Assembly (NCBI GenBank): GCA_964548125.1
Contig: CAZJQN010000001.1
Location: 34,303-98,302, forward strand
Length of the DNA stretch: 64,000 nt
Origin: an uncultured Bacteroidales bacterium
GTDB lineage: Bacteria > Bacteroidota > Bacteroidia > Bacteroidales > JAAYUG01
Reading direction: 5' to 3'
In this document: positions 280 through 63,358 of the stretch, in pieces
How the letters are laid out: each line of letters opens with the position of its first letter
Position numbering within the stretch: the stretch's first letter is position 1
The notes under the pieces: generated by a model
The model's input: the letters and a program-made list of their open reading frames with translations, nothing else
Databases searched by the model: none
Told to the model about the DNA's origin: nothing
Position numbers and translations under genes: made by a program

Positions 280-3200
280 TTATTCTGTCTGAGAGAATCG
301 CAGGCTAAGATTTTCAATACTGTCAAGCAGTTTTTTAAGGAGCCTGAAATAAAGCATAAGGTAAAGGATTATTGTCATAAACCAGATTACCCCGATATTC
401 ACCCAGATAGTATCTATGTATCGCCCGAAAACCATTTTGCGGGGAGCATAGAAATGAGCTTTGATAAAGCGAGATTCAGGATCAAGGTATATAGGATTGA
501 TTTTCTGGTACAGTTGATTTTTGTATTCCAGTATTCGATCCGTTTCATTTTTGTTGGTCACAAATTCTTCTAATGCTTCGTTGGCGTGTCTTCTCTTTAA
601 CCACTGGAAGGCTTCTTTCATTTCCGGTGTGCGTTGTAACGAGTTGATCAGTTTATCCTTTTCTTCGTTTGCTTTATTCGACAACCTGATGTAATATGTA
701 TTAAGTAGACGAAGGTAATTCCGGGTTTCTTCGATGATATAGGGCGTAACATGCCCGGGAACCAGACTATCTATGAATGCAAAAGCAACCTGTTTGTTTC
801 GCTGGTTTTCCTTTCCTATTTCATTGCGAAGAAGCTGAAGATCATTTTCAACCTTTTGTTTTGAATCAGATTTATCAATGCTGGTCTCAATCTCGTCTAA
901 TTTTCTGTTTAAATGGTTAATCCAGTAATTTTTTCTAAAATCTGCCATACTCATAATCTTATTCCACTGGTAGAACTGCCGGTCGTATTTATTTTCCTTG
1001 AACTGATAGACCGCAAGTGCTTCATAACCCCATCGGGCTGTCATGAGTTCTCCATAAAAAGGGATACTGGTCGGGGAAGAAATGGCCGGGTTAAGTTTTT
1101 CGTACTTTACAAGAACCCCGCTCAAAATAATCTGAGGGATTACCAGGAATGGAATAAGTATATAAATGGTCACAACAGTTTTAAAGCTATCGGAAATCAT
1201 CAATCCCATCATATTAGATGAAGCCCAGATACTAAACAACACTAGCCAGTATTGCCAGTACATTCCTTTGATTTCCATGATACTATTTCCGACTAGCACG
1301 AATGTCAATGCCTGAATAGCGGAAAGGCCGAATTGAACGCCAACTTTTGAAAGAAGATAACTCGACCAGCTCAGATCGAGGAATGCTTCCCGTTTGAGAA
1401 TTTTCCGGTCCTTAATAATCTCTTCGGCACTTACTGTGAGTCCAACGAAGATGGCTACAATAACTGACATAAATAGATAAACGGGAAGATTGCTGTTGCC
1501 GAACAGAGTATAGCCGTATTGATTGGTTACATTAACGTTATAGTACTTGATAATGTAAGCCATAATCAGAGCCAGTACAGGTGCCTCCAGAAAGTTAATG
1601 ATAAGGTACTGGGTATTAGCTAGTTTGGAAAGAATGTCCCGTTTTGCAAAAATAAGGAACTGCTTTACCCGATTAGGAGTTTTGAATGAAATCTTTGGAA
1701 GAGTGTTTCCAGACTGCTTTTTTTGATCGGTCTCTTTGGAATACTCCTTATAGTAAAAATACCATTCCTGAGGAGATATTTTCCGGGTGCGGGTTTGTTT
1801 TCCATATTCATCCAATACTGCCAGCTCAACTATATTGAATATTTGTTCAGGATTAACATTTCCACAAGCATGGCATTCACTTTCATTCCAGTTTGCATGG
1901 TGTACTCTTTCCTTAAAATAGATAATGGAATCAATGGGATCGCCGTTGTAAATAAGATACCCGCCGGTATCAAGGATAAGAAGACGATCAAACATTTTAA
2001 AGATTTCCGAACTCGGCTGATGAATCACTACAAAGACCAGTTTCCCTTTTAATGACAATTCCTTGAGGAGGTCCATAATATTTACCGAATCGCGTGACGA
2101 CAGGCCAGAAGTAGGTTCATCAAGAAAAAGTACGGATGGTTCCCGGATCAGTTCAAGAGCGATGTTGAGTCGCTTTCGCTGACCTCCGCTAATTTTCTTA
2201 TTCAGTGGTGAACCAACCTGAATATCCTTTATTTCATAAAGTCCTAGATTTTCAAGTGTTCTGTTAACAGTTTCAATCAGTTCCTCTTCAGTGTAATTAT
2301 CGAAACATAATTTTGCATTGTAGTAAAGATTTTGAAATACTGTCAGTTCCTCAATCAGTAGGTCATCTTGCGATACATAACCAATCAATCCTTTCAGTTT
2401 TTCTTTTTCCTTATGGATATCGTACCCGTTGATTCTTACTGATCCCGAGGTAGGAGGTGCTGTGCCATTCAGAACGTTCAACAGGGTTGATTTACCCGCC
2501 CCGCTGGCACCCATAATTCCCACGAGTCTCCCTGATTCTTCTGAAAAACTCATCTCGTGCAGTCCGATCTTGCCTCCGCTGAAATGGTACTCTATCCTTT
2601 CAGCCTCAAATACAATCTTTTCCTTCATCAGATCCCTGTGAAAACTACTGACTACATCGCTGTAATAGATAGGTTTTATCTGTGGATTTCTTATGGAAGA
2701 GCCAGTGGTAAATACGTGAACCTTATCGTGCTGCAGCAGTTGTCCATTAAGGTACATTTCCTTTTCTCCCACATACCTTAACAAGTATATGTTCGAAGAG
2801 GGTAAATAAAGAATACGGATCTGACCCTCCATCCCTTCCACCACATTGTGCTTTACAGTTGGATGCTGAAAGTCCTTTCTGCTGTCAATCAGCAGAACAT
2901 ATTCATTTTCAGGGAATTGTTCAAAATTAGTCAGAACAAACTGTTTTATGCCTTCATACTCGTCTGCCTGGAAATTAAATATACTGGCAACTGTGTTGAT
3001 AAATTCCATCTCCTGATGCGAGACTTCATTTCCGTCTGACTTAACAAATTCCAATAACTGGAAAAGAACTATTACTTTTTGCTGTTGGGTAAGTTCTTCA
3101 TTAACATCGGTACAAATTTTAAGAACACGTACCGAAATGGAGGATATTATTCGGGTAAGCTTGTCTTTTTCTTTCTGTTTTTCCTGATGCTCGCTGTAAT

Positions 3201-5077: not shown

Positions 5078-5434
5078 TTAAGGGTTTTTTAGTGATATGT
5101 CAGGTATCAGTTCGCGAAGTTCAGCTATTGCCTGCTGGCTGGAGCTCAGGAAAGCAGAAACACATTCGGCATAGAGATCTTCATCTTTCCGGCTCAGAAT
5201 ATCAAGTTCCAATTGTTTTAGCTTTTGCGCCAGGCTGTGTAATCCCATGATAGCAACCGTTGTTTTTGCTTTATGCGCCTGTTTGGCCAGCTGATCCCAA
5301 TCACGGAGCCTCAGGCTTTCCTGCATACTTTGGGCAAGTTCCTGCACTTGAGAAATAAATATTCCGGCCAGTTCCCTGAGTACATCAGGGTCATTTCCGG
5401 TATTTTCCCGAAGGTAGGAAAGGTCAACTATCAT
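5078..5434 (-). CDS. Hpt (histidine phosphotransfer) domain protein
   Basis: 118 aa and helical. The candidate phospho-His context is QAHKAKTTVAIMGL (compare HxxKG....G). Its stop codon lies 1 nt from the STAS start. Confidence 0.75.
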   Translation of the reverse strand: MIVDLSYLRENTGNDPDVLRELAGIFISQVQELAQSMQESLRLRDWDQLAKQAHKAKTTVAIMGLHSLAQKLKQLELDILSRKDEDLYAECVSAFLSSSQQAIAELRELIPDISLKNP

Positions 5435-5509
5435 TTTGTCCCAATTTCAAGGCTAAAATAATATAAAGATTTTAAGTTTCTAACCGGGAGAGCAACTTTT
5501 GAACAAATC

Positions 5510-5673
5510 CTGCAGATTAACCCTGATTACGCATAAGGAATTATACGAACTGATGCGTAGTGGGATGGCTTGGGATGCTGGCATCAGGGTTAACCCTGAT
5601 TACGCATAAGGAGTTATACGAACTGATGCGTAGTGGGATGGCTTGAGAAGCTGGCATCAGGGTTAACCCCGAT
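5510..5673. repeat. 73-bp tandem repeat (2 full copies plus an 11-nt start of a third) with 18-bp palindromic junctions
   Basis: Copy A is 5517-5589 and copy B is 5590-5662 (70/73 identical). A partial copy C is 5663-5673. The A/B junction forms the perfect palindrome ATCAGGGTTAACCCTGAT (5583-5600). The B/C junction (5656-5673) matches it at 17/18. Each unit also has an inner inverted repeat, TACGCAT (5528-5534) / ATGCGTA (5553-5559). Confidence 0.95.
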
Positions 5674-5909
5674 GGAACGAAGTGAAATATGCTTTTTGGG
5701 GACGATACGCATCAAGTAATGCATATCGTGGGTAAATCGCAATGCATTAAAGTTTTTCTAATGCAATGTTAGGGATTAAATCAACCATCTCGACAAATTG
5801 AGTATTTTCAACTGGATTATTCGGGTTAACCAAATTTTTTTTACCTTTCGTACCAATAAACCCTTATATGGATGGGTGTATTCGATTCATCAATGAAAAA
5901 CTTGAACAT

Positions 5910-6968
5910 ATGAGCAGGCTTTTGGTGTGTATCCTGATGTTATTTCTGTTTTCAGCAGGAGAGCTCACTTCCCAGACGATTTCAGCCGATCCGGTTGCAA
6001 AGCTCAGAAATCAGAGGAATTATGCTCAGGCATACAATCAGGCGATTGAGGCGATAAAGTCAGGGGATTATTCTCAGGCTGCAGTATTTCTTGACAAAGC
6101 CCTCGAATTTTCTCCAAACGCTCCTGAAGCACTGCTTCAAAGGTCCAAAATCTTCTTCACTTATCAGGATTATGATGCTTCACTTCAGGATCTTGAGACA
6201 CTTCTGAAAAACAAACCCGAAACCGGAGAAGCTTGGTATCTGGAAGGTGTTATATGGATGCTTCACGATTCCCTTCCACGGGCCTTGCAATGTTTGAATG
6301 AAGCCATCCGAAGGAACTACACTACGGAGGAAGCTTTTTTTTACCGGGGGGTCCTGAAAAACTCTCAGGGTGATTATAATGGAGCGATTTATGATTTTAC
6401 GATGGCTATTGACAAGAATCCCAATCATGCTGTAGCTTTTCATGAACGTGCTTCTGTACGCCGTATGGTTAAAGATCTTCAAGGGGCTCTCTATGACTAC
6501 AGAATGGCTGTTGGACTGGATAGTATGTTTCTGACGGCCTATAATAATATGGGTCAGTTAAAGATGATTCTGGGGGATTATCAGGGAGCTGTGGAAGATT
6601 TTTCCAGGGCCGTCAGGCTTGATCCTGCAAATCATCAGGCTTTTAATAACCGGGGTCAGGCCTATTACCTGATGGGTGAATATCCTAAAGCGGTTGAGGA
6701 TTTTTATGCAGCGGTTGTAATTGATTCAGCCTATGCAGCAGCATGGAATAACCTCGGAAATGCCTATGCCAAAATGGAGAAATATGAAGAGGCAGCATCC
6801 TATTACACAAAGGCATTGCAGATAGATTCCGGTTTTGCCATTGCCTATCTTAACCGCGGATTTGTCAACGAACTGCTGGGAAAGCTGGAAAATGCCTGTG
6901 CCGACTGGAAAATGGCCCTTTCCCTTGGTAGAAAAGAAGCCGAAAAGTATCTCAAGGAATGTAAGTAG
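5910..6968 (+). CDS. TPR repeat protein, secreted
   Basis: The ORF track gives 5868-6968. The internal ATG at 5910 gives a signal-peptide-like N-terminus, MSRLLVCILMLFLFSAGELTSQ. There are many 34-aa TPR-like units (A..YN.G......GDY..A..D...A..LDP). Confidence 0.85.
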   Translation: MSRLLVCILMLFLFSAGELTSQTISADPVAKLRNQRNYAQAYNQAIEAIKSGDYSQAAVFLDKALEFSPNAPEALLQRSKIFFTYQDYDASLQDLETLLKNKPETGEAWYLEGVIWMLHDSLPRALQCLNEAIRRNYTTEEAFFYRGVLKNSQGDYNGAIYDFTMAIDKNPNHAVAFHERASVRRMVKDLQGALYDYRMAVGLDSMFLTAYNNMGQLKMILGDYQGAVEDFSRAVRLDPANHQAFNNRGQAYYLMGEYPKAVEDFYAAVVIDSAYAAAWNNLGNAYAKMEKYEEAASYYTKALQIDSGFAIAYLNRGFVNELLGKLENACADWKMALSLGRKEAEKYLKECK

Positions 6969-9080: not shown

Positions 9081-9323
9081 TGCACTGATGCGTAAAATTC
9101 CTGTTCCTGTTGCCCCTGGTCTGGTTAGCAAGAAGTAATGTAATACCAGTAAACAAAATAAACGCAATTGGTTTGCTTGCACAGTTCCTGTATTTGTATG
9201 GAACTGATTTCCTTTGAAGAATAAGATGAACAGATTGTCCAGAAGAAGAGAAGAAATTAGGTTAAAGAACATTCATGGTTTATCACGTAAAAATTATTTT
9301 TGTGCAAACAAAAACCGCAAATT

Positions 9324-22242: not shown

Positions 22243-23154
22243 ATGACCTGGGTAGAGGCTATAAAGGGATTTGAGTTTTATCTGCGGCTGGAGAAATCTC
22301 TTTCACAGAACAGTATTGAAGCGTATCTTACTGATGTACATAAGCTTTGTTCTTTTGCGGGAGGATTGGATGGTCCTCTGGCACCGGAAGAGGTTGATAC
22401 AGAGCTTATACGCGAAATGCTTCGTTTTTTTAGAGAAGCAGGATTAACGGAACGGACTCAGGCCCGTATTGTATCTGGAATCAAAGCCTTTTATCGCTAC
22501 CTTTTGCTCGAGGGGATTATAAAGGAAGATCCATCAGAACGGATAGAGTCTCCGAAAATCGGGCGAAAATTGCCTGAGGTTCTCACAATAAGCGAAATTG
22601 ATGCCATGGAGAATGCTGTGGATCTGAGCAAACCAGAAGGACACAGAAACCGTGCAATGATTGAGGTTATGTACAGTTGTGGTTTGAGGGTATCTGAACT
22701 GGTGAACCTCAGAATATCACATATCCACAGGAAGGATGAATACCTGAGAATACTGGGAAAAGGTAACAAGGAACGTCTGGTGCCAATCGGATCCCGTGCC
22801 CTGAAAGAAATAGATCTGTATCTTCCCTGGAGAAACCTTCTGCCTTCTATTGACCCGCGCAACTCGGACATTCTTTTTCTGAACCGAAACGGAAAAAAAC
22901 TTACACGGGTAATGGTTTTTCTCATTGTAAAAGACCTGGCTGAAAAAGCGGGCATCAGAAAGAAAATCAGCCCTCATACTCTCCGGCATTCCTTTGCCAC
23001 CCACCTTATTGAAGGAGGTGCCGACTTACGAGCGGTTCAGGAAATGCTTGGTCATGCTTCCATACTTACAACTGAAATTTATACCCATGTTGATAAAGAA
23101 TATCTTCGCGATGCCATACTGCGTTTCCACCCTCGATCAGGAAATCAGTCATAA
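22243..23154 (+). CDS. xerD: Site-specific tyrosine recombinase XerD
   Basis: 303 aa. The N-terminal SAM-like domain reads FYLRLEKSLSQNSIEAYLTDV. The catalytic region reads GLRVSEL...HTLRHSFATHLIEGGADLRAVQEMLGHASILTTEIYTHV. Confidence 0.88.
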   Translation: MTWVEAIKGFEFYLRLEKSLSQNSIEAYLTDVHKLCSFAGGLDGPLAPEEVDTELIREMLRFFREAGLTERTQARIVSGIKAFYRYLLLEGIIKEDPSERIESPKIGRKLPEVLTISEIDAMENAVDLSKPEGHRNRAMIEVMYSCGLRVSELVNLRISHIHRKDEYLRILGKGNKERLVPIGSRALKEIDLYLPWRNLLPSIDPRNSDILFLNRNGKKLTRVMVFLIVKDLAEKAGIRKKISPHTLRHSFATHLIEGGADLRAVQEMLGHASILTTEIYTHVDKEYLRDAILRFHPRSGNQS

Positions 23155-34469: not shown

Positions 34470-35309
34470 ATGTATATCAAGGCAGGCATACAGTTCAGCT
34501 CTGACGACATTTCTTTGCCTGACAGGATTATTGCTGTCCTTTTATTAACCGGTTGCGAAGGTATTGAAGAATCACCCTATCAGATTGATGCCTGGTTTCG
34601 TGCTGAAGTCTTCTCAGAAAAAAATTTGCGCAAAGCTCTAAATCATTTTTTTTATGAAGACAGATTTTTCAAACTCGAGATTGAATATGTACCTGAAGTA
34701 AACTGGAATGCAGAATGGGAGAAAAACTTTTCTCCAGTTATTGTCAATCAGGATTGCCGAATTCGGGCACCTTTTCATCATTTTCCGGATGCCTGTACTT
34801 ACGACATCGTCATTGAACCGAAGATGTCATTTGGTACCGGTCATCATGCAACTACCTTTCTCATGGTGGAAAAATTGCTAAAAACAGACGTTACCGGAAA
34901 GAAGATTTTAGACGCGGGTACAGGAACCGGTGTGCTTGCAATACTTGCTTCTATGCGTGGAGCTTCCATGGTGGTTGCGTGCGATATAGATAAGTATGCC
35001 ATCGATAATGCTGCAGAAAATTTCCGTCGCAATAAAATCTCCAATGTATTGCTCATTCATGGTTCTGTAGAGGAAGTTACTGAAACCGGATTTGATGGTA
35101 TTCTAGCCAATATTAATAAAAATGTATTGCTAAGCGAAATGCCTCTATATGCTCATCATATGAAAGAAGGCGGTTTCCTTTTGTGCAGCGGTTTTTTCAG
35201 CGAAGATGCTGATGAAATTAGTAAAAGGGCTGAAAAAGATTTCCTTGAAGTAAACCACATGTTTGTTAGGGATGGATGGGCAGCATTGCAATTCAGAAAA
35301 AAATCCTAA
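34470..35309 (+). CDS. prmA: Ribosomal protein L11 methyltransferase
   Basis: 279 aa. FGTGHHATT and the LDAGTGTGVLAI SAM-binding motif are present. Confidence 0.88.
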   Translation: MYIKAGIQFSSDDISLPDRIIAVLLLTGCEGIEESPYQIDAWFRAEVFSEKNLRKALNHFFYEDRFFKLEIEYVPEVNWNAEWEKNFSPVIVNQDCRIRAPFHHFPDACTYDIVIEPKMSFGTGHHATTFLMVEKLLKTDVTGKKILDAGTGTGVLAILASMRGASMVVACDIDKYAIDNAAENFRRNKISNVLLIHGSVEEVTETGFDGILANINKNVLLSEMPLYAHHMKEGGFLLCSGFFSEDADEISKRAEKDFLEVNHMFVRDGWAALQFRKKS

Positions 35310-35320
35310 ATCTGATATCT

Positions 35321-38300
35321 ATGCAGAAGTCCCGGATGTTGCTGGTTTTTTCAGGACTATTGCTGTCGGCCATGGTCCTGGGGCAGAAGCTTAAGGAATT
35401 TAGTCCGGCGCCTGAAAAATTTCCTGACGAACTGCAGGCATATTTTAAGGGTTCTTTATCGGATGACCAGAAAAACTTTGTTGACCAGTTTTTAACCATC
35501 TGGACTACAGATACTCTTTTTGAAGAAAATCAGAAACTGACTGTGATTGGGCATTTGAACGGAATGCTAAGGCAAAATGCCAGGAATAGTCATCTGATAA
35601 AATATCTTCAGATGATTCAGATGTTCCGTACTGATCGATCGAGGCAGGTTTATTTTGAAGGATGGAAATCTCAGCTAGAATTATTATTGGCCGAGAAAAA
35701 ACTTCTTGCCTCACGGCTTACGTATTTCCTGGAAAATACTGATGGATTGATAAAGAGAGGGGAGTTGTTCTCTTCAACGGCACTGGTATGGCGAGCAGAT
35801 TCCACCTTCCTTGATTTTGTCCCCGGTTCTTTTCACGTCAAGCTGGGTACCACCCGGCTGGTATGCCTTTCGGTGCGCGACAGTATTGTCATAGAAAATA
35901 CCCACGGTATTTATAACCCGGTTGAACAGAAATGGTATGGAGACGGGGGATTAGTTACCTGGGAAAGGGCAGGGTATGCCCGCGATTCGGTTTATGCCGA
36001 GCTGGAAACCTACACACTGGATCTGACAAAATCGGGATACAAAACTGATTCGGCAAAACTTATCCACAAACAGTTTTTTCATTCTCCCCTCTCAGGTGTT
36101 CTGACCGATCAGGTGAAAAAGAACACCTCACCTGAAATGGCAACCTATCCAGTTTTCGACTCCTATGAAAAAACGTTTGTTATCAGGAGTATTTTCCCCG
36201 GTTTTGACTTTTCCGGAGGTCTTTCCATGCGCGGAGCTCGATTGGTTGGCTCCGGCAACAATGTTCAGGAAGCTACTCTGAAAGTTTTCCGTAATGATAC
36301 CTTGTTTATGGTAGTGCGGTCAAACTACATTGCATTTCGTAAAGAACAAATTATTAGCAGAAATGCTGCTGTTCTTGTAATTATCAACCGCGATTCCCTT
36401 TATCATGGAAATATGAATTTCAGTTATCTGAATTCAACCCGAGAGATTTCTGTTACCCGTTCTGATGATATCGGAAGTCAAAGTCCATGGTATAACAGCT
36501 ATCATCAACTCGACATGCTTTTTGACCAGATGTACTTCAAACTGGGTTCAAAAGAAATTCTGTTCACAATGAACCGGGGAGCTTCCATAGGTAATGCCTC
36601 CTTTCAGAGTGTCAATTTTTTTAATGGGCGCCAGTACGAAGATTTACAGGGAGTCGATCCTATTCACCCCCTGGTGGCTGTGCGGAATTTTGTGCGGTAT
36701 TTTCAGTCACCTGAATTCCCGATAAATGATCTTGCTTCGTACCTGCGTCTTTCTACTGATCAGACCCAGAAGATGCTGTTTCGCCTTGCATCAATGGGGT
36801 TCCTTTTTTATAATCCTGAGGATGGAATGGTGAAGGTAAAACCTAAACTGAACAACTTCATCCAGGCCAGCATTGGAAGAATTGACTATGATGTAATTGA
36901 TCTTCGCTCTCGCACAGAAGCTCCAATGGAAAATGCCCGGCTTAATCTTCAGACTTTTGACCTAACGATCAACGGCATCCCTTCAATAGCTTTGTCCGAT
37001 TCTCAGAATGTTTTCATTTTACCCAGTCAGGGTTCAATCATAATGAAGAAGAACAGAAGCTTTCAGTTCAGCGGACGCATTGATGCAGGATTGTTTACCT
37101 TTTACGGAAGCAATTTCTTTTTCGATTACGAGCAGTTCAAAATCAATCTTCAGAAAGTTGATTCCCTGAGTATACGTGTGCAGACTGACGAACAGGATAA
37201 TTTCGGTTTTGCCAAACTGGCCGGTGTTAAAAATATTATTCAAAACCTTACAGGGGATCTCCTGATTGATGATCCTTCCAATAAATCGGGAGTGAAAGGA
37301 CTGAAACAATATCCAGTTTTTCAAAGCCGGGAGAATTCATATGTTTATTTTGACAATCCAAATATTCAGAAAGGTGTTTATACTCGAGAAAAGTTCTATT
37401 TTCAGGTATATCCTTTCGTTATTGATAGCCTCGACCGTTTCAGCAAAAACGATATGCAATTCAGGGGAAAATTTGTATCGGCGGGTATTTTCCCTGAAAT
37501 GGAACAGACACTGGTACTTCAGCCTGATTATTCTCTGGGATTCGATATCATTGCCCCGGCAGAAGGATTACCTATTTACTTAGGGAAAGGACGTTTTTAC
37601 CGTCAGGCAAATCTGAGTAACAAAGGGCTAATCGGAAACGGTTCATTTGAGTATCTCACGTCAACAGTTGAATCGGAAGCACTGTTTTTTTACCCCGATT
37701 CCCTGAATACAAAGGCAAAGAAATTCGCTATCAGAAAACAACCTGAAGGCGGATCCTTCCCGGAAACCATGGGCACCGATCTTGCTGTTCACTGGGAACC
37801 TTATCATGACCAGTTGTCTGTTTATCAGGGAAAGACTCCTTTTACAATGTATAACCAGCAGGCCACTCTGGCTGGGAACCTGAAACTTACACCATCAGGT
37901 CTTTCAGGAAACGGGACAGTTGATCTGACTTCTGCTGTGCTCGCTTCGAATCAGTACAACTTCAAATCAGACCGTTTCCTGGCCGATACGGCTGCCTTCA
38001 GTCTGCGGTCAGTCAAACCATCTGTATATACTTTGCTGGCCCAGAACCTGCGGACCGAAATTGACTTTGCCAAACGGCAGGGTACTTTCAGCTCAAATTC
38101 GGATAATACCCTTGCTTCCTTCCCGGAGAATCAGTATATAAGCTATATTGACCAGATGGTATGGCACATGGATCAGCAGAAAATTGATCTTCTGTCGGTC
38201 AAACCATTTGACATTAAGCAGGTGCCTGAAACTTATAAGGATGTTATTGATTCGGTTGATTTTACCCTTACGGGTGCCAGGTACATTTCTGTAAGGAAAG

Positions 38301-39835
38301 ATCAGGATTCACTCAGTTTTATTTCTCCCAAAGCTACATACGACTATAGTGTCAACGTGTTGAATGCCACTGGAGTTCGTTTTGTACGGGTGGCTGATGC
38401 ACTTGTTTATCCTGCGCATGAATTGCTTTCTGTGGCCGAAAAAGCCGATATGCTTCCTGTCGATAGTTCTGTGATCATAGCTGATGCAAAAAATAAATTT
38501 CACAGGATTCATACAGCGACGGTTAAAATAGCCGGACGAAACAAATATTCCGGAAACGGTTGGTACGACTATATAGACGAAAATAAATCCGTTCAGAGGA
38601 TTCACCTGACTGAAATTTCTGTTGATGACTCCATTCAAACAGTAGCCCGTGGAGAGATTGCAGAGACAGATCATTTTACATTAAGTCCTGACTACGCTTA
38701 CCAGGGTAGGGTTATGATGAATGCCCGCGACAAGCTTCTCAATTTCAAGGGAGCAGTTTTGCTCAATTATTCCTGTGAACCCTTATCCCGAAGCTGGCTT
38801 GCTTTTGAAACACGGATAAATCCAGACAGTATTCTGATTCCTGTATCAACCCAACCATTGGACGTGAACAGAAACAATCTGTATGCTGGTATGTTGATGA
38901 ACAACGACTCGATTCATGTGTATTCGGCATTTTTCCAGCCCAGAAAGAACTATAAAGACAGTTATATATCAACTGCCGAAGGATATCTTTACTTTTTCAA
39001 GGACTCTTCTACCTATCTGTTAGGTTCCCTTGCTAAAATGAAAAATCCTGCCTCTCAGGGGAATTTGATAGCACTGAATCGTAATACATGCCGTTTTCAT
39101 GGAGAAGGGAAGATGAACCTGAACATTGACCTGGGCCAGTTTCAACTTCAGGCTGCCGGCAATGGTTTTCATAACCTTGCGGCCAATATGCCATATCTGA
39201 ATCTCACTCTGATTGTTGATTTTCCTTTTATGGATAAGGCTTTACAACTTGCTGCAGCCGATTTTGACAGTCTTCCCGGAAAAGGAAATATCAGCCTTGG
39301 TGATCCGGCAATACGAAAAAATATCACGGAATTAATAGGAGAGGAGAAAACCAAAAAGCTCTACGATGAGATTGCACTCTATGGCCAGGTCCGTACCTTG
39401 CCGGTGGAACTGGCAAAAACCTTGGTGCTGGGCGATGTTCATTTGCTGTGGAACAACAGTACTAATTCTTACCAGAGTTACGGACTTATCGGTATACGTA
39501 ATATCAACGGCCGCGAAATCAACAAATATGTAGAAGGATATATCGAACTTTACCGAAAAAGAACCGGTGACATTTGCGATATCTTTCTGAAAGCTGATGA
39601 TAATACCTGGTACTATTTCGGGTACACAAGAGAGGTTATGCAGGCCATTTCCTCGAACCGAGATTTCAATAACATGCTTCGTGTGCTTAAACCAGAGCAA
39701 CGCCAGGTGAAACCGCCGAAAAAAGGAATGCCTGGTTATATTTATATGGTAGCAAGCGATACCAAGATCAATCAGTTTTTGCGCCATTATGAGGATGTAC
39801 TCGAAGAGAGAAGGGCCAGTAACCCATCAGAATAA
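35321..39835 (+). CDS. Very large secreted hypothetical protein (~1504 aa)
   Basis: The track ORF starts at 35276, overlapping prmA. ATG 35321 gives the signal peptide MQKSRMLLVFSGLLLSAMVLGQ. The frame is continuous for 4.5 kb. I found no recognisable domain or motif. Confidence 0.8.
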   Translation: MQKSRMLLVFSGLLLSAMVLGQKLKEFSPAPEKFPDELQAYFKGSLSDDQKNFVDQFLTIWTTDTLFEENQKLTVIGHLNGMLRQNARNSHLIKYLQMIQMFRTDRSRQVYFEGWKSQLELLLAEKKLLASRLTYFLENTDGLIKRGELFSSTALVWRADSTFLDFVPGSFHVKLGTTRLVCLSVRDSIVIENTHGIYNPVEQKWYGDGGLVTWERAGYARDSVYAELETYTLDLTKSGYKTDSAKLIHKQFFHSPLSGVLTDQVKKNTSPEMATYPVFDSYEKTFVIRSIFPGFDFSGGLSMRGARLVGSGNNVQEATLKVFRNDTLFMVVRSNYIAFRKEQIISRNAAVLVIINRDSLYHGNMNFSYLNSTREISVTRSDDIGSQSPWYNSYHQLDMLFDQMYFKLGSKEILFTMNRGASIGNASFQSVNFFNGRQYEDLQGVDPIHPLVAVRNFVRYFQSPEFPINDLASYLRLSTDQTQKMLFRLASMGFLFYNPEDGMVKVKPKLNNFIQASIGRIDYDVIDLRSRTEAPMENARLNLQTFDLTINGIPSIALSDSQNVFILPSQGSIIMKKNRSFQFSGRIDAGLFTFYGSNFFFDYEQFKINLQKVDSLSIRVQTDEQDNFGFAKLAGVKNIIQNLTGDLLIDDPSNKSGVKGLKQYPVFQSRENSYVYFDNPNIQKGVYTREKFYFQVYPFVIDSLDRFSKNDMQFRGKFVSAGIFPEMEQTLVLQPDYSLGFDIIAPAEGLPIYLGKGRFYRQANLSNKGLIGNGSFEYLTSTVESEALFFYPDSLNTKAKKFAIRKQPEGGSFPETMGTDLAVHWEPYHDQLSVYQGKTPFTMYNQQATLAGNLKLTPSGLSGNGTVDLTSAVLASNQYNFKSDRFLADTAAFSLRSVKPSVYTLLAQNLRTEIDFAKRQGTFSSNSDNTLASFPENQYISYIDQMVWHMDQQKIDLLSVKPFDIKQVPETYKDVIDSVDFTLTGARYISVRKDQDSLSFISPKATYDYSVNVLNATGVRFVRVADALVYPAHELLSVAEKADMLPVDSSVIIADAKNKFHRIHTATVKIAGRNKYSGNGWYDYIDENKSVQRIHLTEISVDDSIQTVARGEIAETDHFTLSPDYAYQGRVMMNARDKLLNFKGAVLLNYSCEPLSRSWLAFETRINPDSILIPVSTQPLDVNRNNLYAGMLMNNDSIHVYSAFFQPRKNYKDSYISTAEGYLYFFKDSSTYLLGSLAKMKNPASQGNLIALNRNTCRFHGEGKMNLNIDLGQFQLQAAGNGFHNLAANMPYLNLTLIVDFPFMDKALQLAAADFDSLPGKGNISLGDPAIRKNITELIGEEKTKKLYDEIALYGQVRTLPVELAKTLVLGDVHLLWNNSTNSYQSYGLIGIRNINGREINKYVEGYIELYRKRTGDICDIFLKADDNTWYYFGYTREVMQAISSNRDFNNMLRVLKPEQRQVKPPKKGMPGYIYMVASDTKINQFLRHYEDVLEERRASNPSE

Positions 39836-41728: not shown

Positions 41729-42583
41729 TTACTGGTTCAGCGTTCCTGCATTAACTACAGGTCGTGCCGACTCATCTGAACAAAGTACTACCATTAGGTT
41801 GCTTACCATGGCTGCTTTCTTTTCCTCATCCAGATCAACGATTTTTTTCCCGGCCAGCTGATTGAGCGCCATTTCAACCATTCCCACTGCACCTTCCACA
41901 ATTTTGCTCCGGGCTGCCACAACCGCGGTGGCTTGCTGACGTCTAAGCATTGCTCCTGCTATTTCAGACGCATAAGCTATATAATTAATGCGTGCTTCAA
42001 TTACGTGAATGCCGGCAATTTCAAGCCTTTCTGCTATTTCCTTTTCCAGCTGATGGTTCACCACATCTCCTGCGGAACGCAGAGTCACTTCGGCCGATTC
42101 GTCTTCAAAATTATCATACGGGTACGTTCCTGCTAGTTTGCGCAAAGCAGCTTCACTCTGAACAACGACAAAGTTTTCATACTCATCAACCGCAAAGGCA
42201 GCCTTGTACGTGTCTTCCACTTTCCACACCAGCACTAATCCAATCATAATAGGGTTTCCAACCTTATCGTTAACCTTAATTGGTTTGCTGTCAAAGTTCC
42301 GGGCCCGCAAGGATATTTTCTTCTTCACAAAAAAGGGATTAACCCAGAAGAAACCATTTTTTTTAATTGTTCCCCTGTAGTCGCCGAAAAGAACAAGAAC
42401 CCTTGATTCATTCGGGTTAACAACAACGAGCCCAGGTAAGATGAGAAAAAAAAGAAGCATAGTCGCCAAAAAGGGCCAGATCATCTCCTGAACCGCGGAG
42501 TATATTATCCCTGCCAGAAGCAGAGCAAGCACCAGTAATGCCAGGTATCCTGACCATGGCTGAAAGGATTTTTCTGTATTCAT
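41729..42583 (-). CDS. SPFH/Band 7 (stomatin-prohibitin-flotillin-HflK/C) domain membrane protein
   Basis: 284 aa. Two N-terminal TM helices are followed by VVVNPNESRVLVLFGDYRGT... and an SPFH-like core with a helical C-terminus. Confidence 0.85.
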   Translation of the reverse strand: MNTEKSFQPWSGYLALLVLALLLAGIIYSAVQEMIWPFLATMLLFFLILPGLVVVNPNESRVLVLFGDYRGTIKKNGFFWVNPFFVKKKISLRARNFDSKPIKVNDKVGNPIMIGLVLVWKVEDTYKAAFAVDEYENFVVVQSEAALRKLAGTYPYDNFEDESAEVTLRSAGDVVNHQLEKEIAERLEIAGIHVIEARINYIAYASEIAGAMLRRQQATAVVAARSKIVEGAVGMVEMALNQLAGKKIVDLDEEKKAAMVSNLMVVLCSDESARPVVNAGTLNQ

Positions 42584-44124: not shown

Positions 44125-46947
44125 ATGCCAGAGGTTGCGTCGGAAGGAAAGATAGTAATCAAAGGAGCCAGGGTCAACAATCTGAAATCGGTAAACCTGA
44201 CCCTTGATCGTGACAGGCTTATTGTTATTACAGGGTTATCAGGTTCTGGAAAATCTTCATTGGCTTTTGATACGATATATGCCGAAGGTCAGCGGCGCTA
44301 TGTAGAGAGTCTCTCGGCCTATGCACGTCAGTTTCTCGGGCGCATTCAAAAGCCTGAGGTGGACGTAATCAGGGGTCTTCCGCCGGCTATTGCTATTTCT
44401 CAGAAGCAGGGTGCACATAATCCAAGATCAACTGTAGGAACCACAACCGAAATTTATGATTATCTGAAGCTGCTTTACGCACGTATAGGGAAAACCTATT
44501 CACCCGTGAGCGGAAAGCTGGTTAAAAAACATTCTGTTACGGATGTGGTTGATTTTATTCTTCAGCAACCGGAAGGAAGTAAGCTGATTCTGGCATGCCC
44601 TTTACCATCATATGGAGAGAAAGACCTGCCGCAGATGCTCCGTCTTCTTTTGCAACAAGGAATAACAAGACTTATCTGTGGCGATAAAGCTATGCTAATA
44701 GAGGAAATGGAAGAAGAAGACTTGCGAAAATTGCAGCCTTCCTGCACACGCATGGTTATCGACCGTTTTGTGGTAGGGCATGATGACGATTCAGTAACCC
44801 GTTACGGTGATTCAGTTCAGACAGCCTTTACCCTTGGGCATGGAGAGTGCTGGATCATGTCGGGTGGTGAGGGAAAACCAACTATCAATGAACACTTTTC
44901 CGATCGCTTTGAAGCCGATGGAATCAGTTTTGAAGAACCCAATGAACTTATGTTCAGTTTCAACAGCCCGGTTGGCGCCTGTCCTATGTGTGAAGGGTAC
45001 GGAAGCATAATTGGTATTGATGAAAATCTCGTAGTACCTGATAAAGGTCTTTCTATATATGAAGATGCGATTGCCTGCTGGAAGGGTGAAAAAATGAAGC
45101 GTTGGAAAGAAAAGCTGATCTTGCAGGCCGACAAATTTGGATTTCCAATTCATAAACCATATTATCAGCTTACAGAGGAGCAGAAAAGGGTTTTGTGGGA
45201 AGGGAATAAATATTTTCCTGGTATTAATGCTTTTTTTCAGCATGTTGAGGAAAAGAAATACAAAATACAATACAGGGTATTGCTTTCCAGGTACAGAGGA
45301 AGAACGGTATGTCCGGAATGCAAGGGTGTGCGGCTCAAGAAACAGGCTGGGTGGGTTAAAATAGGCGGGAAAAGTCTTCCGGAACTTGTCCAGCTTTCTT
45401 TAAATGAAGTGACAGACTTCTTTCGTTCCCTTCGCTTGTCAGCACACGAACGTGAAATCAGCTCACGACTGCTTGAAGAAATTATGAGTCGTTTGCAATA
45501 TCTCGAAGAGGTGGGGCTTGGGTATCTTACCCTTAATCGTTTGTCATCCACTCTTTCCGGAGGGGAATCACAGCGGATACGTCTGGCTACACAGCTGGGA
45601 AGTAATCTGACCGGCTCCTTGTATATACTTGACGAACCGAGCATCGGTCTGCACCCACGTGATACCGGATTGTTGATTCATGTGTTAAAGCATTTGCGTG
45701 ATTCGGGTAATACTGTTATGGTGGTTGAGCATGATGAGGAAATCATCAGGGCCGCTGATACGGTTGTTGATATAGGTCCTGGTGCCGGGAGGTTGGGTGG
45801 TGAGATTGTTTTCTGCGGAACGCATAAGGATCTGGAAAAGTCCAAAAACAGCCTTACTGCCGACTATCTTACGGGCAGGAAAGAGATTTCTATCCCTGAC
45901 AGGAGAAGAAAATGGAATAATTATATCGAAATCACAGGAGCCAGGGAGAACAATCTGAAGAACATCGACGTCAGGTTTCCTTTAAACATTCTGACCGTAG
46001 TTACAGGTGTCAGCGGTTCAGGAAAATCTTCTCTTGTATGCGATATTCTGTATCCTGCCCTGAAACGAATAATTCAGGATTCGGCTGAGAAAACGGGTCA
46101 ATTTGGAACTATCAAAGGAGATATCAAAACAATCAGGTCAGTTGAGATGGTTGACCAGAACCCAATCGGGCGTTCAAGCCGTTCCAATCCGGTTACCTAT
46201 ATTAAAGCCTGGGATGAAATCAGGAAATTATATGCATCTCAGCCTGTTGCTGAACATTACCGGTTGAATCCATCGCATTTTTCATTCAATGTAGAAGGAG
46301 GACGTTGCGAAGAATGCCAGGGGGAGGGAGTCATTCACATTGAAATGCAGTTCATGGCTGATGTAACGCTTGTGTGCGAAAGTTGCCAGGGAAAGCGTTT
46401 CAAAGAAGATGTTCTGGAAGTAACCTATCAGGGAGCCAATATATACGATGTGCTGGAAATGACGGTCGATGAAGCTATTGCATTTTTTGGCAAATCAGAG
46501 AATACTTTGAGCAGGCGAGTTGTGGAGAAACTTAGACCGCTTGCTGATGTAGGACTTGGATATATTAAGCTGGGACAGTCGTCCAGCACTCTGAGTGGTG
46601 GTGAAAGCCAGAGGGTAAAACTGGCGTCCTTCCTGAGTCATGAAAATGCGGAAGGAGGTACTGTTTTTATATTTGATGAACCCACTACAGGTCTTCACTT
46701 CCATGACATAAGAAAACTTCTGGATGCTTTTCAGGCTTTGATAGAACATGGCAATTCCATTATTGTGATAGAACACAACATGGAAGTCATCAAATGTGCC
46801 GATTGGATAATTGACCTTGGTCCGGAAAGCGGAAACAATGGTGGAAATTTAGTTTGTGAAGGCACCCCCGAAATGGTTGCTGCATGCGAACAATCGTATA
46901 CCGGGAAGTTTCTTCGGAAAAAGCTCAGGCAGTTTACTTCTCTTTGA
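44125..46947 (+). CDS. uvrA: Excinuclease ABC subunit A
   Basis: There are two ABC ATPase modules (GLSGSGKSSLAFDT and GVSGSGKSSLV), zinc-finger CxxC pairs and LSGGE(S)QR signatures. The track start at 44104 is TTG, so ATG 44125 is preferred. Confidence 0.95.
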   Translation: MPEVASEGKIVIKGARVNNLKSVNLTLDRDRLIVITGLSGSGKSSLAFDTIYAEGQRRYVESLSAYARQFLGRIQKPEVDVIRGLPPAIAISQKQGAHNPRSTVGTTTEIYDYLKLLYARIGKTYSPVSGKLVKKHSVTDVVDFILQQPEGSKLILACPLPSYGEKDLPQMLRLLLQQGITRLICGDKAMLIEEMEEEDLRKLQPSCTRMVIDRFVVGHDDDSVTRYGDSVQTAFTLGHGECWIMSGGEGKPTINEHFSDRFEADGISFEEPNELMFSFNSPVGACPMCEGYGSIIGIDENLVVPDKGLSIYEDAIACWKGEKMKRWKEKLILQADKFGFPIHKPYYQLTEEQKRVLWEGNKYFPGINAFFQHVEEKKYKIQYRVLLSRYRGRTVCPECKGVRLKKQAGWVKIGGKSLPELVQLSLNEVTDFFRSLRLSAHEREISSRLLEEIMSRLQYLEEVGLGYLTLNRLSSTLSGGESQRIRLATQLGSNLTGSLYILDEPSIGLHPRDTGLLIHVLKHLRDSGNTVMVVEHDEEIIRAADTVVDIGPGAGRLGGEIVFCGTHKDLEKSKNSLTADYLTGRKEISIPDRRRKWNNYIEITGARENNLKNIDVRFPLNILTVVTGVSGSGKSSLVCDILYPALKRIIQDSAEKTGQFGTIKGDIKTIRSVEMVDQNPIGRSSRSNPVTYIKAWDEIRKLYASQPVAEHYRLNPSHFSFNVEGGRCEECQGEGVIHIEMQFMADVTLVCESCQGKRFKEDVLEVTYQGANIYDVLEMTVDEAIAFFGKSENTLSRRVVEKLRPLADVGLGYIKLGQSSSTLSGGESQRVKLASFLSHENAEGGTVFIFDEPTTGLHFHDIRKLLDAFQALIEHGNSIIVIEHNMEVIKCADWIIDLGPESGNNGGNLVCEGTPEMVAACEQSYTGKFLRKKLRQFTSL

Positions 46948-47374
46948 ATCCAAACATAATAGCAACGCAACCTTGCTGAATTGCATCAGGACTCGACCCT
47001 GAAGAAGGAACTTTTACATAAATTTTTAGCTGCTGGCTTGACTCAAGCTTAAAATCCCAGGTCTTGGCATAGTTGTTTTTCTTGTTGTCGTACAGAACAT
47101 TTTTGTTGGCATCAATCACCTTGAATTCGATGGGAGGCAGAGCATCTGAACCGCAGATAGCAATACGATACTCCTGGTCAGAATAAAAGGTTTTGTAAAG
47201 TTCTGCTTCTTCACCTTCAACAAGAACAGCGGCGTGAAAATTGCCATCATGAATATAGGGAGTAAGTTCGAGTTTGCAGATTTTTTTGGCGAATCCTTTA
47301 CATTGAGCATTCCCGTAGAGGGGTACCATGACCAAAATTGCTATAGCAAGGGTTGCTTGTAAGACTCTTTTCAT
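46934..47374 (-). CDS. Hypothetical secreted protein
   Basis: 146 aa. The signal peptide is MKRVLQATLAIAILVMVPLYGNAQ. The 3' end overlaps the uvrA 3' end by 14 nt (convergent). Confidence 0.65.
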   Translation of the reverse strand: MKRVLQATLAIAILVMVPLYGNAQCKGFAKKICKLELTPYIHDGNFHAAVLVEGEEAELYKTFYSDQEYRIAICGSDALPPIEFKVIDANKNVLYDNKKNNYAKTWDFKLESSQQLKIYVKVPSSGSSPDAIQQGCVAIMFGFKEK

Positions 47375-47386
47375 ACGTCGCGGTAT

Positions 47387-48310
47387 TTATAATGTAAAGT
47401 TGGTTCTGATGTCTTTGGCCTTCTCGCGCAATTCATCAAATATTTCCTGAGTGATCTGAATTTCTGACTTGGATTTGAGGAGTGTTACATTAGTTTTAGG
47501 ATCTTCTACGGGTGTGATAGCAGAGGTTTTGATGGTAATCTTGTCAAAAGTTTTTTTCAGATCATTCATTTGCTCAAGAATGCTTTCAACATCAGGATTT
47601 TCTTTATTTTCTTCAAGAAGTCGCAGTACAATTTCAAGCGAAAACTTTTGCTCCACAATTCGTTCTACAAGTTTATTTCCTTTCACCGGACTTTTTCCCA
47701 CGAGTTGGGTGGCAATGTACAGGCCTTCAACCCATCCGCCGACCAATACGATACTAGCCACTGCCTTACGCTCGTTTTCCAGCAGGAAGGAGTTGGACGA
47801 CATGAGTGTTTCAGAAATAATATTCATCAGTTCGTCCCGGTTGTTCACGTTTTCTTCCAGCCGATCAATTGTAGTCTGGTCGATGGCATCAAGAATGCCC
47901 AGACCATCGGCCATCTTTTTAGCGGCCTGCATATAGTTTATAGAGGTCTGTGTCTGGTCAAAAAGGCTGGCAAAACTGAGGTCGGTTGAGAAGATTCCCA
48001 GATTCAACGCCATCTGTCTGTTGGTGGTATAGTTATTGGCGTTAGATAAGGGGTTGAGAAGGCTTTCGTTATACTTGGCTCCAGCTGACTTCAGCAGCAC
48101 TGCTGTTTCAAGCGGTGAGGGGAGTGAATAAAATACTTTTTTTGCTTCGTTTAAATCTTCAAATATCTCATCACCTGCAGTAAGATCTACGGTATTTTGT
48201 TCATTACTGGTATTCTTACTCCCTTCTGACCGGCATCCGTTTATTATGGCAAATGCGAGTAACAAGCCGAGAAAGGAAACGGTTTTGACAGAAATATTTC
48301 GCAGCCACAT
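47387..48310 (-). CDS. Hypothetical lipoprotein, predominantly helical
   Basis: 307 aa. It has a signal peptide with a lipobox-like AIINGC. It ends 12 nt upstream of the 146-aa gene on the same strand. Confidence 0.65.
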   Translation of the reverse strand: MWLRNISVKTVSFLGLLLAFAIINGCRSEGSKNTSNEQNTVDLTAGDEIFEDLNEAKKVFYSLPSPLETAVLLKSAGAKYNESLLNPLSNANNYTTNRQMALNLGIFSTDLSFASLFDQTQTSINYMQAAKKMADGLGILDAIDQTTIDRLEENVNNRDELMNIISETLMSSNSFLLENERKAVASIVLVGGWVEGLYIATQLVGKSPVKGNKLVERIVEQKFSLEIVLRLLEENKENPDVESILEQMNDLKKTFDKITIKTSAITPVEDPKTNVTLLKSKSEIQITQEIFDELREKAKDIRTNFTL

Positions 48311-48505: not shown

Positions 48506-49384
48506 TCAGTATATTCGGTCAGTCAATAAGTCGTCATAGGAAGAGTCGAGCGAATCAGTCCACCCTATAAGATAACTGGTTAATGCGCCGATAGACATGC
48601 TTTCAATGTTTCGCCCGTATGGATCCTGCATAATATCGTCAGGGAACTCGTGCTGTGCCAGCCTGATTTTACTTTGACTTCTGCGGAATGGGGTTTTGTA
48701 CAGATCGGCTGCTCCGAAAAGATGCAGGATATTGTGCGCAATTTCTGAAGGGTATTTATAACTAATAATCCCAAACTCAACATCGTTAGTATCGAATGTG
48801 TTTACTTGAAGTGAGATGTCAACTCTATAATAATTATTTAGAAAAAACATGAGGGCAACACTTTCAACAGCATGGTCGTCGCGCAAAAAGGCTACTAATC
48901 TTTCCTTGTTCCTTGGATTTTTGATTTCGGGAATTCCGTCTTTTTCAGGCATTACATAAGCACTTCCAACCCTTTTGGCTATATTATCTCCCCATGTGTT
49001 TAGTTCTTCCAGTCCCTTTCTTAGTCCAAGTTTGTCAATGGTTTTGCTTACCGTACCATAGGTCAGGTTCCTGCTTATGGTTGAATATTCCTTACCTATA
49101 TAATAATCTGTTTTTATTCGCAAGGGAATTCCTGCTGATGCTGCCTGGTTGTGCAGCCATTTTACGGCTGTTGAAATAGAGTCGAGGGTGGTTCGGATAT
49201 CAAATTCAGTCCAGGGTGCTGATTCTTTGTTGTCAACGAAAACAAAGTAAATCAACACATCTCCTTTCAGAAACTTGCATACATTTTTGTTACGGCTTTC
49301 TCTGTAGTCGATCCGTTTCAGAGAAAAGGAAGAGGGGATCAAGGTAAGCCCTGCAACAATCAGAATCCCTGCAATGATTCGCAT
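48506..49384 (-). CDS. Membrane-anchored hypothetical protein with degenerate metzincin-like motif HNILHLFGAAD
   Basis: The track ORF (48506-49450) starts at a TTG overlapping the nth stop. The first ATG, 49384, gives MRIIAGILIVAGLTLIPSS (N-terminal anchor). The motif HNxxHxxGxxD lies at 48704-48736. Confidence 0.65.
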   Translation of the reverse strand: MRIIAGILIVAGLTLIPSSFSLKRIDYRESRNKNVCKFLKGDVLIYFVFVDNKESAPWTEFDIRTTLDSISTAVKWLHNQAASAGIPLRIKTDYYIGKEYSTISRNLTYGTVSKTIDKLGLRKGLEELNTWGDNIAKRVGSAYVMPEKDGIPEIKNPRNKERLVAFLRDDHAVESVALMFFLNNYYRVDISLQVNTFDTNDVEFGIISYKYPSEIAHNILHLFGAADLYKTPFRRSQSKIRLAQHEFPDDIMQDPYGRNIESMSIGALTSYLIGWTDSLDSSYDDLLTDRIY

Positions 49385-60400: not shown

Positions 60401-60520
60401 TATCCGACCCTGCACTACAAATTCCTGGGCTGGCAAACTGGCCGTACTCAGCAGGATCAGAAAAGACAACAGATATAACAGGTTTGACCTGCTATTGCGT
60501 TTTTTTAATAAAAATACCAT
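57416..60520 (-). CDS. SusC/RagA family TonB-linked outer-membrane protein
   Basis: 1034 aa. The features are a signal peptide, a CarboxypepD_reg domain (VQGRITDASTSEPLPGANVTIKGT), a TonB-box/plug (DEIVVIGYGT, NILKDASATAIYGARGANGVVMITTRRGK) and a C-terminal beta-barrel ending in F. Confidence 0.93.
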   Translation of the reverse strand: MVFLLKKRNSRSNLLYLLSFLILLSTASLPAQEFVVQGRITDASTSEPLPGANVTIKGTSIGVISAPDGSYRITCRNDRDTLQFSFVGLETQVIPVEGRNRIDVALSVKAEILDEIVVIGYGTVKKKDLTGAVSVVSSEQIAKTNSMSFDRAIQGKAAGVWVTNTSGRPGSEVSVKIRGIGSINRESEPLYVIDGFPITGGLNHLNPNDIESVNILKDASATAIYGARGANGVVMITTRRGKKGEPQVSFSSYVSYSKIPRLYDILNADEYVALMDSAYRYYNSDPFTTVPMPFPVAYSDSVRALNGNIDTDWQKEISQPAVGQNYDLRILGGGEKSTYMISGNFYNENGILIGTSMTRYTLKANSDFSIGKRIKIGESFNFSNIGVDDQSHYTNGNPWIIAAKTSPLMPVYDKNNKGGYAGPTPEVTPVNERTNPVAEQMLNDNTNRSTRFLVSLYGEVEIFKGFRFRTNFGYDMNFYQVRQWNPVYELGTIGGRSRYVSTLFMSRDQGGKYFWDKQLIYENTFGKHNLALTFVHTNEDGKGESLSGKGANFDFENLNVLAMADPTTYTASGYAGQERMESYLGRIIYDYNGRYFLTASIRKDGSSKFGPKHKWGTFPSFSAAWKFSEDLLQKYSWITSGKLRIGYGVTGNENIGSFQYESYIEPKVEFVTAMGDPGRTVFGRGPLYNFGNAAIQWEEASMTNLGLDLILFRNQLEFTFEYYYKDQQKMLATIPISSVHGRLEGFEPWGNVANMINKGIELNLTYRKSAGKWKYSLNGNLTTIKNTVTNLPAGRNIIESHSITMKGHTISSFYGYIADGIFQSWEDVNNHAFQNEKTSPGDIRFRDINRDGKVTDLDRVIIGKPVPDFTYGFNLDAGYGQFDLAVFLYGVQNVDIYNDFRANAGLATDPEGKDNNKLREALDFWSPSHHTNKQVRASIIDPNDNNRISSFFIENGSFLRIKNLQVGYTLPAKLLTFLRIRSLRLYVNASNLYTFTRYTGYDPEIGSKQNLNFGIDYGNYPLPRTFMGGVQIDF

Positions 60521-62951: not shown

Positions 62952-63306
62952 ATTTTCTGCAGGGGTAGCGAATTGGCCAAATTTTCTTGTATTTTTATTT
63001 ATAAATCGTTCTATATTAACGCTTAGTATATTGATATTTATACAAATGTTTCTATCAATTTTCCGGGTACCCGGTTACTGAAATTTGTAGCAACCCCATT
63101 CATATTAGTTTGCCTGAGCTACCATTACGGGTAATCAGGGATTAACATTCCGGCAATAGGCTGAACATTGTTCATTCGGGAGTAGAAAAAAGAAAAGCAA
63201 AAAGTACTTTGATTACATTGAAACCTGGTACCGGAGTGTAAACAAATACTCTTCTGATCGTGTTTTTCTTTCTAATTTCTGATAACGACCTGATAATAGT
63301 AATTAT

Positions 63307-63352: not shown

Positions 63353-63358
63353 CTTGCG

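Follow-up and report, generated by a model that had tools for sequence, protein, structure and literature searches.

A 73-bp tandem repeat between divergent operons of an uncultured Bacteroidales bacterium, most likely a lineage-specific duplication of a palindromic spacer unit

A 64,000-nucleotide stretch of DNA from an uncultured Bacteroidales bacterium (contig CAZJQN010000001.1 of assembly GCA_964548125.1; hereafter, the window) contains two head-to-tail copies of a 73-bp unit, followed by the start of a third, in the spacer between two divergent operons. A first-pass annotation had drawn attention to the phased 18-bp palindromes at the unit junctions and had considered a genomic repeat family, a small structured RNA or an operator array as explanations. 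Comparison with the corresponding loci of relatives indicates that the two units, A and B, very probably arose by tandem duplication in the lineage of the window. The phased palindromes are a by-product of this duplication, with no sign of a regulatory device. For the locus as a whole, we favor, with some reservation, an account in which a hairpin relic was duplicated in tandem within a hypervariable spacer, without dedicated function.

The repeat was delimited by Tandem Repeats Finder at positions 5517–5673 (period 73, 2.2 copies, 95% matches, score 286) and is the only one with a period above 15 in the window. Unit A occupies positions 5517–5589 and unit B positions 5590–5662; the two are identical at 70 of 73 positions, the mismatches falling at 5613, 5646 and 5649. 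An 11-nt half-site, TTAACCCCGAT, at 5663–5673 forms the right edge of the duplication. Two units and the first 11 nt of a third, as originally described, are thus present. Each unit starts with TTAACCCTGAT and ends with ATCAGGG, and the TTAA that comes next is common to the following unit. Together with the shared TTAA at 5590–5593, unit A makes a hairpin element of 77 nt in total, whose terminal inverted repeats (TTAACCCTGAT...ATCAGGGTTAA) are 11 nt long and perfect. The window has five TTAACCCYGAT half-sites, none of them outside the repeat, which has a GC content of 0.48 compared to 0.33–0.35 in the flanking spacer. The open reading frames (ORFs) that cross it are mechanical only (28–42 aa), and the 73-nt period is out of frame. 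We considered a third full, degenerate copy at 5663–5739 and rejected it, since 657 and 203 of 1000 shuffles scored equally once the shared 11 nt were removed. A tRNA-like reading of the 73-nt unit was also rejected; in the window, ARAGORN finds only the tRNA-Arg at 63358–63432.

At the A/B junction, unit A contributes its right arm and unit B its left arm, which together with the TTAA common to both form the perfect palindrome ATCAGGGTTAACCCTGAT (5583–5600), and a palindrome matching at 17 of 18 positions joins unit B to the third half-site (5656–5673). The palindromes reported at both junctions are real: the 18-mer occurs with zero and one mismatches, respectively, and shuffles give 0.06 matches. 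They arise because head-to-tail units with 11-nt terminal inverted repeats share the TTAA, placing ATCAGGG, TTAA and CCCTGAT side by side, and they are phased at 73 bp because the unit is 73 bp long. Within the outer arms lies a second inverted repeat, TACGCAT and ATGCGTA separated by 18 nt, which recurs in both units as had been noted (5528–5559 in unit A, with arms at 5528–5534 and 5553–5559; 5601–5632 in unit B, with arms at 5601–5607 and 5626–5632). Folding bore out the proposed two-tier hairpin, which was predicted for each unit on either strand, with z-scores of −3.1 to −5.2 as RNA, and of −4.5 and −5.8 as single-stranded DNA. Any DNA palindrome would be expected to fold equally well from either strand.

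Relatives were found by searching with the Hpt-domain protein encoded next to the repeat (93%, 91%, 89% and 71% identity; L173 at 93%, L168 and L169 at 91%, L171 at 89%), and their loci were compared. The divergent arrangement of Hpt-STAS and TPR-OmpA genes is kept in every relative that was fetched, and the left part of the spacer (5435–5512) is 86–91% identical among the window, L173, L168 and L171. The length of the spacer up to the conserved TPR start (5910) is 475 nt in the window, 307 nt in L173, 310 nt in L168 and L169, 164 nt in L171 and 175 nt in L174. At the place of units A and B, L173 and L168 have one segment of 78–81 nt, denoted E1, followed by a TTAA-bounded 73-nt segment, denoted E2, whose core matches window positions 5770–5829. 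Unit A is identical to E1 at 53 of 88 positions in L173 and at 55 of 92 in L168, with scores that no shuffle out of 1000 reached in either case. The single homologous segment in both relatives implies that one copy is the ancestral state. Since the identity between A and B is 96%, but only ≈60% between them and their homologs in L173 and L168, the duplication postdates the split of the lineages. The first-pass annotation had named a recent slippage duplication of a unit unique to the locus as the case that would speak against its readings. The duplication is essentially shown by the relatives, but with three differences in 73 positions and at least two strains sharing the array it is not brand new, and the unit has diverged homologs.

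The repeat is not an assembly artefact. An identical 433-nt spacer is found on two JGI metagenome contigs, and three Logan contigs from independent runs, one of them with a single-nucleotide polymorphism (SNP) in the flank, all end at window position 5570. They break there because the first 31-mer common to A and B forces a branch in the de Bruijn graph, and the two-variant array must therefore also be present in those samples. The array was found in five metagenome samples, including a strain with the flanking SNP. A Logan contig from the OmpA side begins inside the TPR gene and says nothing about the repeat.

In L173 and L168, the half-sites are degenerate (TTAAAACCAGAT and ATTCGGCTTAA in L173; CTAAAAC..CTGAT and AACTGGTTTAA in L168), and a complete palindrome is found in none of the relatives with one copy. 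Their E1 segments fold no better than shuffles (z-scores of −0.9 and −1.4). In a consensus fold, 17 pairs persist, four of which have changed on both sides, but the relatives have lost several pairs of the outer stem; part of the inner stem is retained, with both-sided changes at two pairs. In L171 (GCA_049700635.1, JBNAUW010000015.1, spacer at 2836–3001), the whole variable block, corresponding to window positions 5517–5825, is missing, and the left flank runs into a single TTAA and then into the right flank. This TTAA marks a precise empty site, or else the block was deleted between TTAACC repeats; because the outgroup L174 keeps part of E2, the apparent empty site may be a deletion. In at least ten more distant Bacteroidales metagenome-assembled genomes (MAGs) that share this gene order, the spacer is AT-rich, measures 103–409 nt and contains no palindrome or similar segment. 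By these comparisons, the spacer is a hypervariable spot within an otherwise conserved gene arrangement.

We propose that the ancestor had one copy, consisting of TTAACCCTGAT, 55 nt, ATCAGGG and TTAA, followed by a second TTAACCCYGAT-like edge, and that slippage or unequal exchange between the two 11-nt direct repeats TTAACCCYGAT would have produced units A and B. The array resembles duplications of this type in its head-to-tail units bounded by the 11-nt repeat and in the single-copy state of the sister lineages, and we found no feature that differs. The effect of the array is likely neutral; at most, it might alter the local structure of the DNA or the spacing of promoters.

The origin of the unit itself is a separate matter. 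The leading possibility, to which we give about an even chance, is that the unit is a relic of a small TTAA-bounded palindromic element, similar to a miniature inverted-repeat transposable element (MITE) or a repetitive extragenic palindromic (REP) sequence. It resembles elements returned by a metagenome scan with the pattern TTAACCCYGAT-N(40-70)-ATCRGGGTTAA, which yielded at least 50 stretches, their termini being forced by the pattern and the source contigs not being among those listed. Most of the matches listed are intergenic palindromic elements of 65–91 nt with the ends TTAACCCCGAT...ATCGGGGTTAA; a few, in which a long perfect palindrome continues beyond the pattern, are probably artefacts or coincidences. 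An AT-rich subfamily of ≈79 nt has the ends TTAACCCCGATTATTCATA...TATGAATAATCGGGGTTAA (loci L009, L012, L014, L019, L020, L022, L025, L027, L031, L043, L045, L053 and L056), and a second subfamily, found in GC-rich contigs, has the ends TTAACCCCGATCCGAAA...TTTCGGATCGGGGTTAA (L011, L026, L032, L047 and L052). The flanks of the elements are unrelated, and the palindrome stops at TTAA. The sequence CCCCGATT is ≈9-fold over-represented in the carrier loci. Of its 90 distinct occurrences, 67 directly follow a TTAA (in many cases because the pattern forced it), and most of the others follow a TTAA with one base changed. Every member examined lies between genes, in several cases right next to a stop codon, and both orientations occur between co-directional genes. 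Copies at five or more distinct loci are identical at 73–79 of 79 positions, among them an identical pair that one contig carries in opposite orientations. Short versions of ≈28 nt and tandem arrays that share TTAA are also found in the carriers. Judged by these sequences, the family behaves as a dispersed MITE- or REP-type repeat that spread recently, and it is possibly an undescribed MITE/REP-like superfamily across phyla. No Rfam model matches the family in 12 carrier loci, and searches of the literature for the sequence strings and for bacterial insertion sequences (ISs) and MITEs that target TTAA gave nothing relevant and no prokaryotic precedent with such a signature. Mini-palindrome arrays were observed in L041 (2555–2650) and L055 (1643–1821), consisting of ATCGGGGTTAACCCCGAT separated by TATATA with periods of 21–32. 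Both are located at a contig end, and the two contigs, which come from one metagenome, apparently cover a single locus at which the assembly seems to have broken inside the array.

Membership of the window unit in this family is plausible, with the arguments on the two sides about in balance. The termini match those of the family at 10 of 11 positions per arm, in the same register and with a compensatory T-A for C-G, in a match that is forced by the pattern; the third half-site (5663–5673) matches the terminal signature of the family at all 11 positions. The unit is 77 nt long compared to 79 nt in the family, and six of the next eight nucleotides match at the 5′ end, but none at the other end. 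TTAA bounds each unit as well as the whole variable block, which in L171 is replaced by a single TTAA. Since TTAA is itself palindromic, a target-site duplication would look the same as part of the inverted repeat.

Bacterial MITEs, such as the Correia elements of Neisseria, RUP, ERIC and Nezha, are ≈70–150 nt long and non-coding, with terminal inverted repeats, a hairpin and a short repeated target. The unit resembles them in being small (<300 bp), non-coding, intergenic and flanked by TTAA, with terminal inverted repeats and a long hairpin, and the metagenomic family does so in being multi-copy and dispersed in both orientations. It differs in that no partner IS or transposase with such ends was found among the window ORFs or in the carrier loci, and in that the window's genome, as far as it was scanned (73.7 kb, made up of the window and 9.7 kb to its left), has it at one locus. 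REP sequences and bacterial interspersed mosaic elements (BIMEs) are built from imperfect palindromes of 20–40 nt with a conserved 5′ GTAG, mobilized by REP-associated tyrosine transposases (RAYTs) of the Y1/HUH type. The likeness here lies in intergenic imperfect palindromes, often right after stop codons, and in the ≈28-nt forms and arrays of the metagenomic carriers. In contrast to REP sequences, the stem has TTAA as its conserved outer tetranucleotide and lacks GTAG at its base, the element is 65–91 nt long, and the window has no RAYT gene. The earlier suggestion of a REP/MITE-like family therefore stands in part: termini, register and size match a dispersed metagenomic family, but the matches cited for it do not hold and no second copy is present in the 73.7 kb. 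The 11-mer at 9084–9094 and the 10-mer at 63131–63140, taken as related sequence, are two of about a dozen 10–11-nt matches to the unit over the window (E 0.8–3); they are present but at chance level, and neither extends to a longer alignment nor carries a half-site.

A number of results weigh against an element origin or against membership in the family. No second copy or paired half-site (allowing up to one mismatch) was found in the 73.7 kb, apart from a chance match inside an ORF; this candidate, at 42339–42420, lies within a Band_7 ORF, and shuffles give ≈0.3 such matches. The 9.7 kb to the left of the window have no copy of the unit. In 715 kb of Bacteroidales relatives there is one half-site, which is at chance level, and in 33 kb of close relatives the half-site is also not enriched, with a chance-level count. 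The 51 ORFs of the window include no transposase or RAYT, including Y1_Tnp; the only recombinase is a XerC/D-type integrase at 22243–23154. The Logan contigs pass unbranched through the first 54 nt of unit A; another identical copy of these 54 nt would have broken the contigs earlier, and there is presumably none in those assemblies. An all-against-all ORF comparison over ≈340 kb of carrier loci gave no multi-copy ORF. We also considered a full-length autonomous element between distant family ends in the carrier loci, but the intervals hold ordinary genes, such as those for RtcB, desulfoferrodoxin and MutL. No match was found in a plasmid collection searched with the repeat and with the family consensus, and scans of viral contigs with three patterns gave no match, or chance and coding matches without a partner arm. 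The AT-rich carriers encode the flagellar export proteins FlhA, FlhB, FliR and FliP and therefore belong not to the Bacteroidota but to another phylum, and the host contigs of the family span GC contents of 0.31–0.70. In the interior, the unit is no closer to the family than many decoys are (92 of 300 and 164 of 300 score equally; p of 0.03–0.06 in a profile test). Finally, the termini are perfect in the window and decayed in the relatives, a pattern whose chance occurrence on a short branch we estimate at P ≈ 0.1–0.25.

The foremost alternative is a purely local origin, in which the unit is native spacer DNA that is palindromic by chance, the likeness to the family is a coincidence, and slippage duplication is all that happened. 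We consider this unlikely, though it deserves serious attention. The non-significant similarity of the interior, the lack of another copy in the genome sample and of half-site enrichment in the relatives, and the absence of the signature from the copies in relatives are all in its favor, as is the huge search space of a scan that forced the termini. On the other hand, a coincidence would have to account for a palindrome that ends at TTAA in the same outer register with a compensatory terminal difference, for the 6/8 match at one end, the 11/11 half-site at 5663 and the similar size class, for the higher GC content of the repeat than of its surroundings, and for a TTAA-bounded block replaced by a single TTAA in one relative.

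A broader form of the element reading, which we regard as doubtful, is that the unit could be a decayed Bacteroidales member of an undescribed cross-phylum superfamily of 65–91-nt elements with TTAA-CCCYGAT ends and subfamilies at 31–70% GC, moved by a TTAA-specific enzyme. Under the same doubtful reading, the mover would be a cut-and-paste transposase of the piggyBac/IS1380 kind or a hairpin-recognizing HUH enzyme. Eukaryotic piggyBac is a TTAA-specific cut-and-paste element, with ends in which TTAA is followed by CCC, and the IS1380 family is said to be related to it. The unit is similar in having TTAA directly outside ends that start with CCC, and the single TTAA of L171 resembles a precise empty site. 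It differs in that no such transposase was found in the material examined, and the L171 site may be a deletion, since L174 keeps part of the block. If the superfamily reading were true, such an enzyme could create and precisely remove head-to-tail arrays like that in the window.

Two independent insertions, first of a mobile TTAA-targeting element and then of a second copy into the flanking TTAA of the first, are very improbable. They would account for units that share exactly one TTAA per junction, and TTAA-sharing tandem arrays do occur in the metagenomic family, which is dispersed and recently spread in its hosts. However, a homologous copy is already present at the site in relatives, so that at most one new insertion would be needed, and its source would have to be nearly identical to the resident copy; none is present in the 73.7 kb, and the Logan assembly graphs show no sign of another identical copy. 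Furthermore, both units have the same orientation, and the third edge, CCCCGAT, is directly explained by duplication between 11-nt direct repeats.

We find it similarly hard to credit that the unit acts as a cis-acting or small structured RNA, in which the transcribed unit would fold into a functional two-tier hairpin for mRNA stabilization, attenuation or as a small RNA. The folds are significantly stable on both strands (z-scores of −3.1 to −5.8), and the inner stem still pairs in relatives with both-sided changes at two pairs. However, Rfam 15 gave no match in the window at the gathering score, and at E values up to 10 just two eukaryotic models of no relevance, neither of which falls in the repeat. 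Neither a sigma-70 promoter motif nor a terminator-like site was found, and a scan for the Bacteroidetes −7/−33 motifs gave only 5/6 matches to −7, close to each gene and none inside the repeat. The homologs in relatives fold no better than shuffles, as noted above, and elsewhere the family shows no fixed orientation between co-directional genes, with members found both ways round. Neither this RNA nor an operator is to be expected when half-sites and hairpin have decayed in sister lineages that keep the same operons, and the suggestion of a structured RNA was not sustained.

Least probable of all is an operator array, in which the 18-bp palindromes, 73 bp or ≈7 helical turns apart, would bind a dimeric regulator of the divergent operons on one face of the helix: the phased palindromes between divergent operons do resemble operator or iteron arrays, their matches exceed the 0.06 expected by chance, and L041 and L055 hold arrays of nearly the same palindrome at ≈24-nt spacing in another organism, but the 96% identity extends over whole 73-nt units and is not confined to the palindromes, a pattern typical of duplication rather than of selection on sites; conservation of the sites is lacking in relatives that keep these operons, where there is one unit with degenerate half-sites and no complete palindrome or, in one case, no unit; no DNA-binding protein or cognate regulator is encoded beside the region; and most family members elsewhere have half-sites that face each other across ≈57 nt and never form the palindrome. 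This part of the first-pass annotation was not supported, the palindromes being junction artefacts. There is no indication of a regulatory influence of the array on the operons beside it. Even so, on sequence alone a regulatory or structural role keeps some probability, which counts against the account favored here.

The divergent Hpt/STAS and TPR/OmpA operons flanking the repeat are as they were first annotated. The Hpt-domain gene (5078–5434, minus strand) is first in the leftward operon and is followed by STAS; the TPR gene (5868–6968, plus strand) is first in the rightward operon and is followed by the gene for an OmpA/PD40 protein. The neighboring genes encode Hpt, STAS, PepSY_TM-like, ABC, TPR and OmpA proteins, with no DNA-binding domain among them. 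The TPR start is ambiguous: the ATG at 5868 falls within a 4-nt insertion not shared by the relatives, and the start conserved in L168, L171 and L173 (352-aa calls) is the ATG at 5910. The window encodes SusC/SusD and a CHU_C type IX secretion domain, which identifies the organism as a member of the Bacteroidota. Its nearest GTDB species representative is a Bacteroidales MAG, in which the OmpA protein is just 60% identical.

Within the spacer, the left part (5435–5516), which adjoins the Hpt start, is AT-rich (GC 0.33). To the right of the repeat, a stretch of ≈100 nt (5667–5769) is found in the window's lineage only and aligns with a gap in L173 and L168. It contains two small hairpins (5702–5729 and 5740–5768), built on ACGCAT/ATGCAT motifs like the inner stem of the unit, and has marginal similarity to the unit or to E1 (p of 0.04–0.2). 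The E2 core, the second TTAA-bounded segment (5770–5829), ends with ATTCGGGTTAA (5819–5829) and is present in L173 and L168, with local alignment scores of 27.5 and 22. We considered E2 (5663–5829) as an older copy of the unit and rejected this, as only one of 12 comparisons reached p = 0.008. The Logan contig of the 93% relative (L172, SRR7799160_273; first 73 nt) ends at the left edge of the variable block (≈5508), which hints at strain heterogeneity at that spot in that sample.

Elsewhere in the window, HEPN and nucleotidyltransferase genes at 61870–62573 (minus strand) overlap by 4 nt, have the look of a toxin-antitoxin pair and adjoin the tRNA-Arg(TCT) at 63358–63432. For the proteins looked up near the right end (57416–60520 and 63519–63953), the assembly collection contains no exact match, in contrast to those from the left end. 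An ORF of 1519 aa (35276–39835, plus strand) has no Pfam match at E ≤ 1e-6, and neither do the ORFs at 46934–47374, 47387–48310 and 48506–49384 at E ≤ 0.01.

For the locus itself, the import is small: palindromes that appear designed and phased are explained by the geometry of duplicating a unit with inverted-repeat ends. The metagenomic family may be worth more than the locus. If it should prove to be moved by a TTAA-specific prokaryotic enzyme, it would be of interest to mobile-element biologists.

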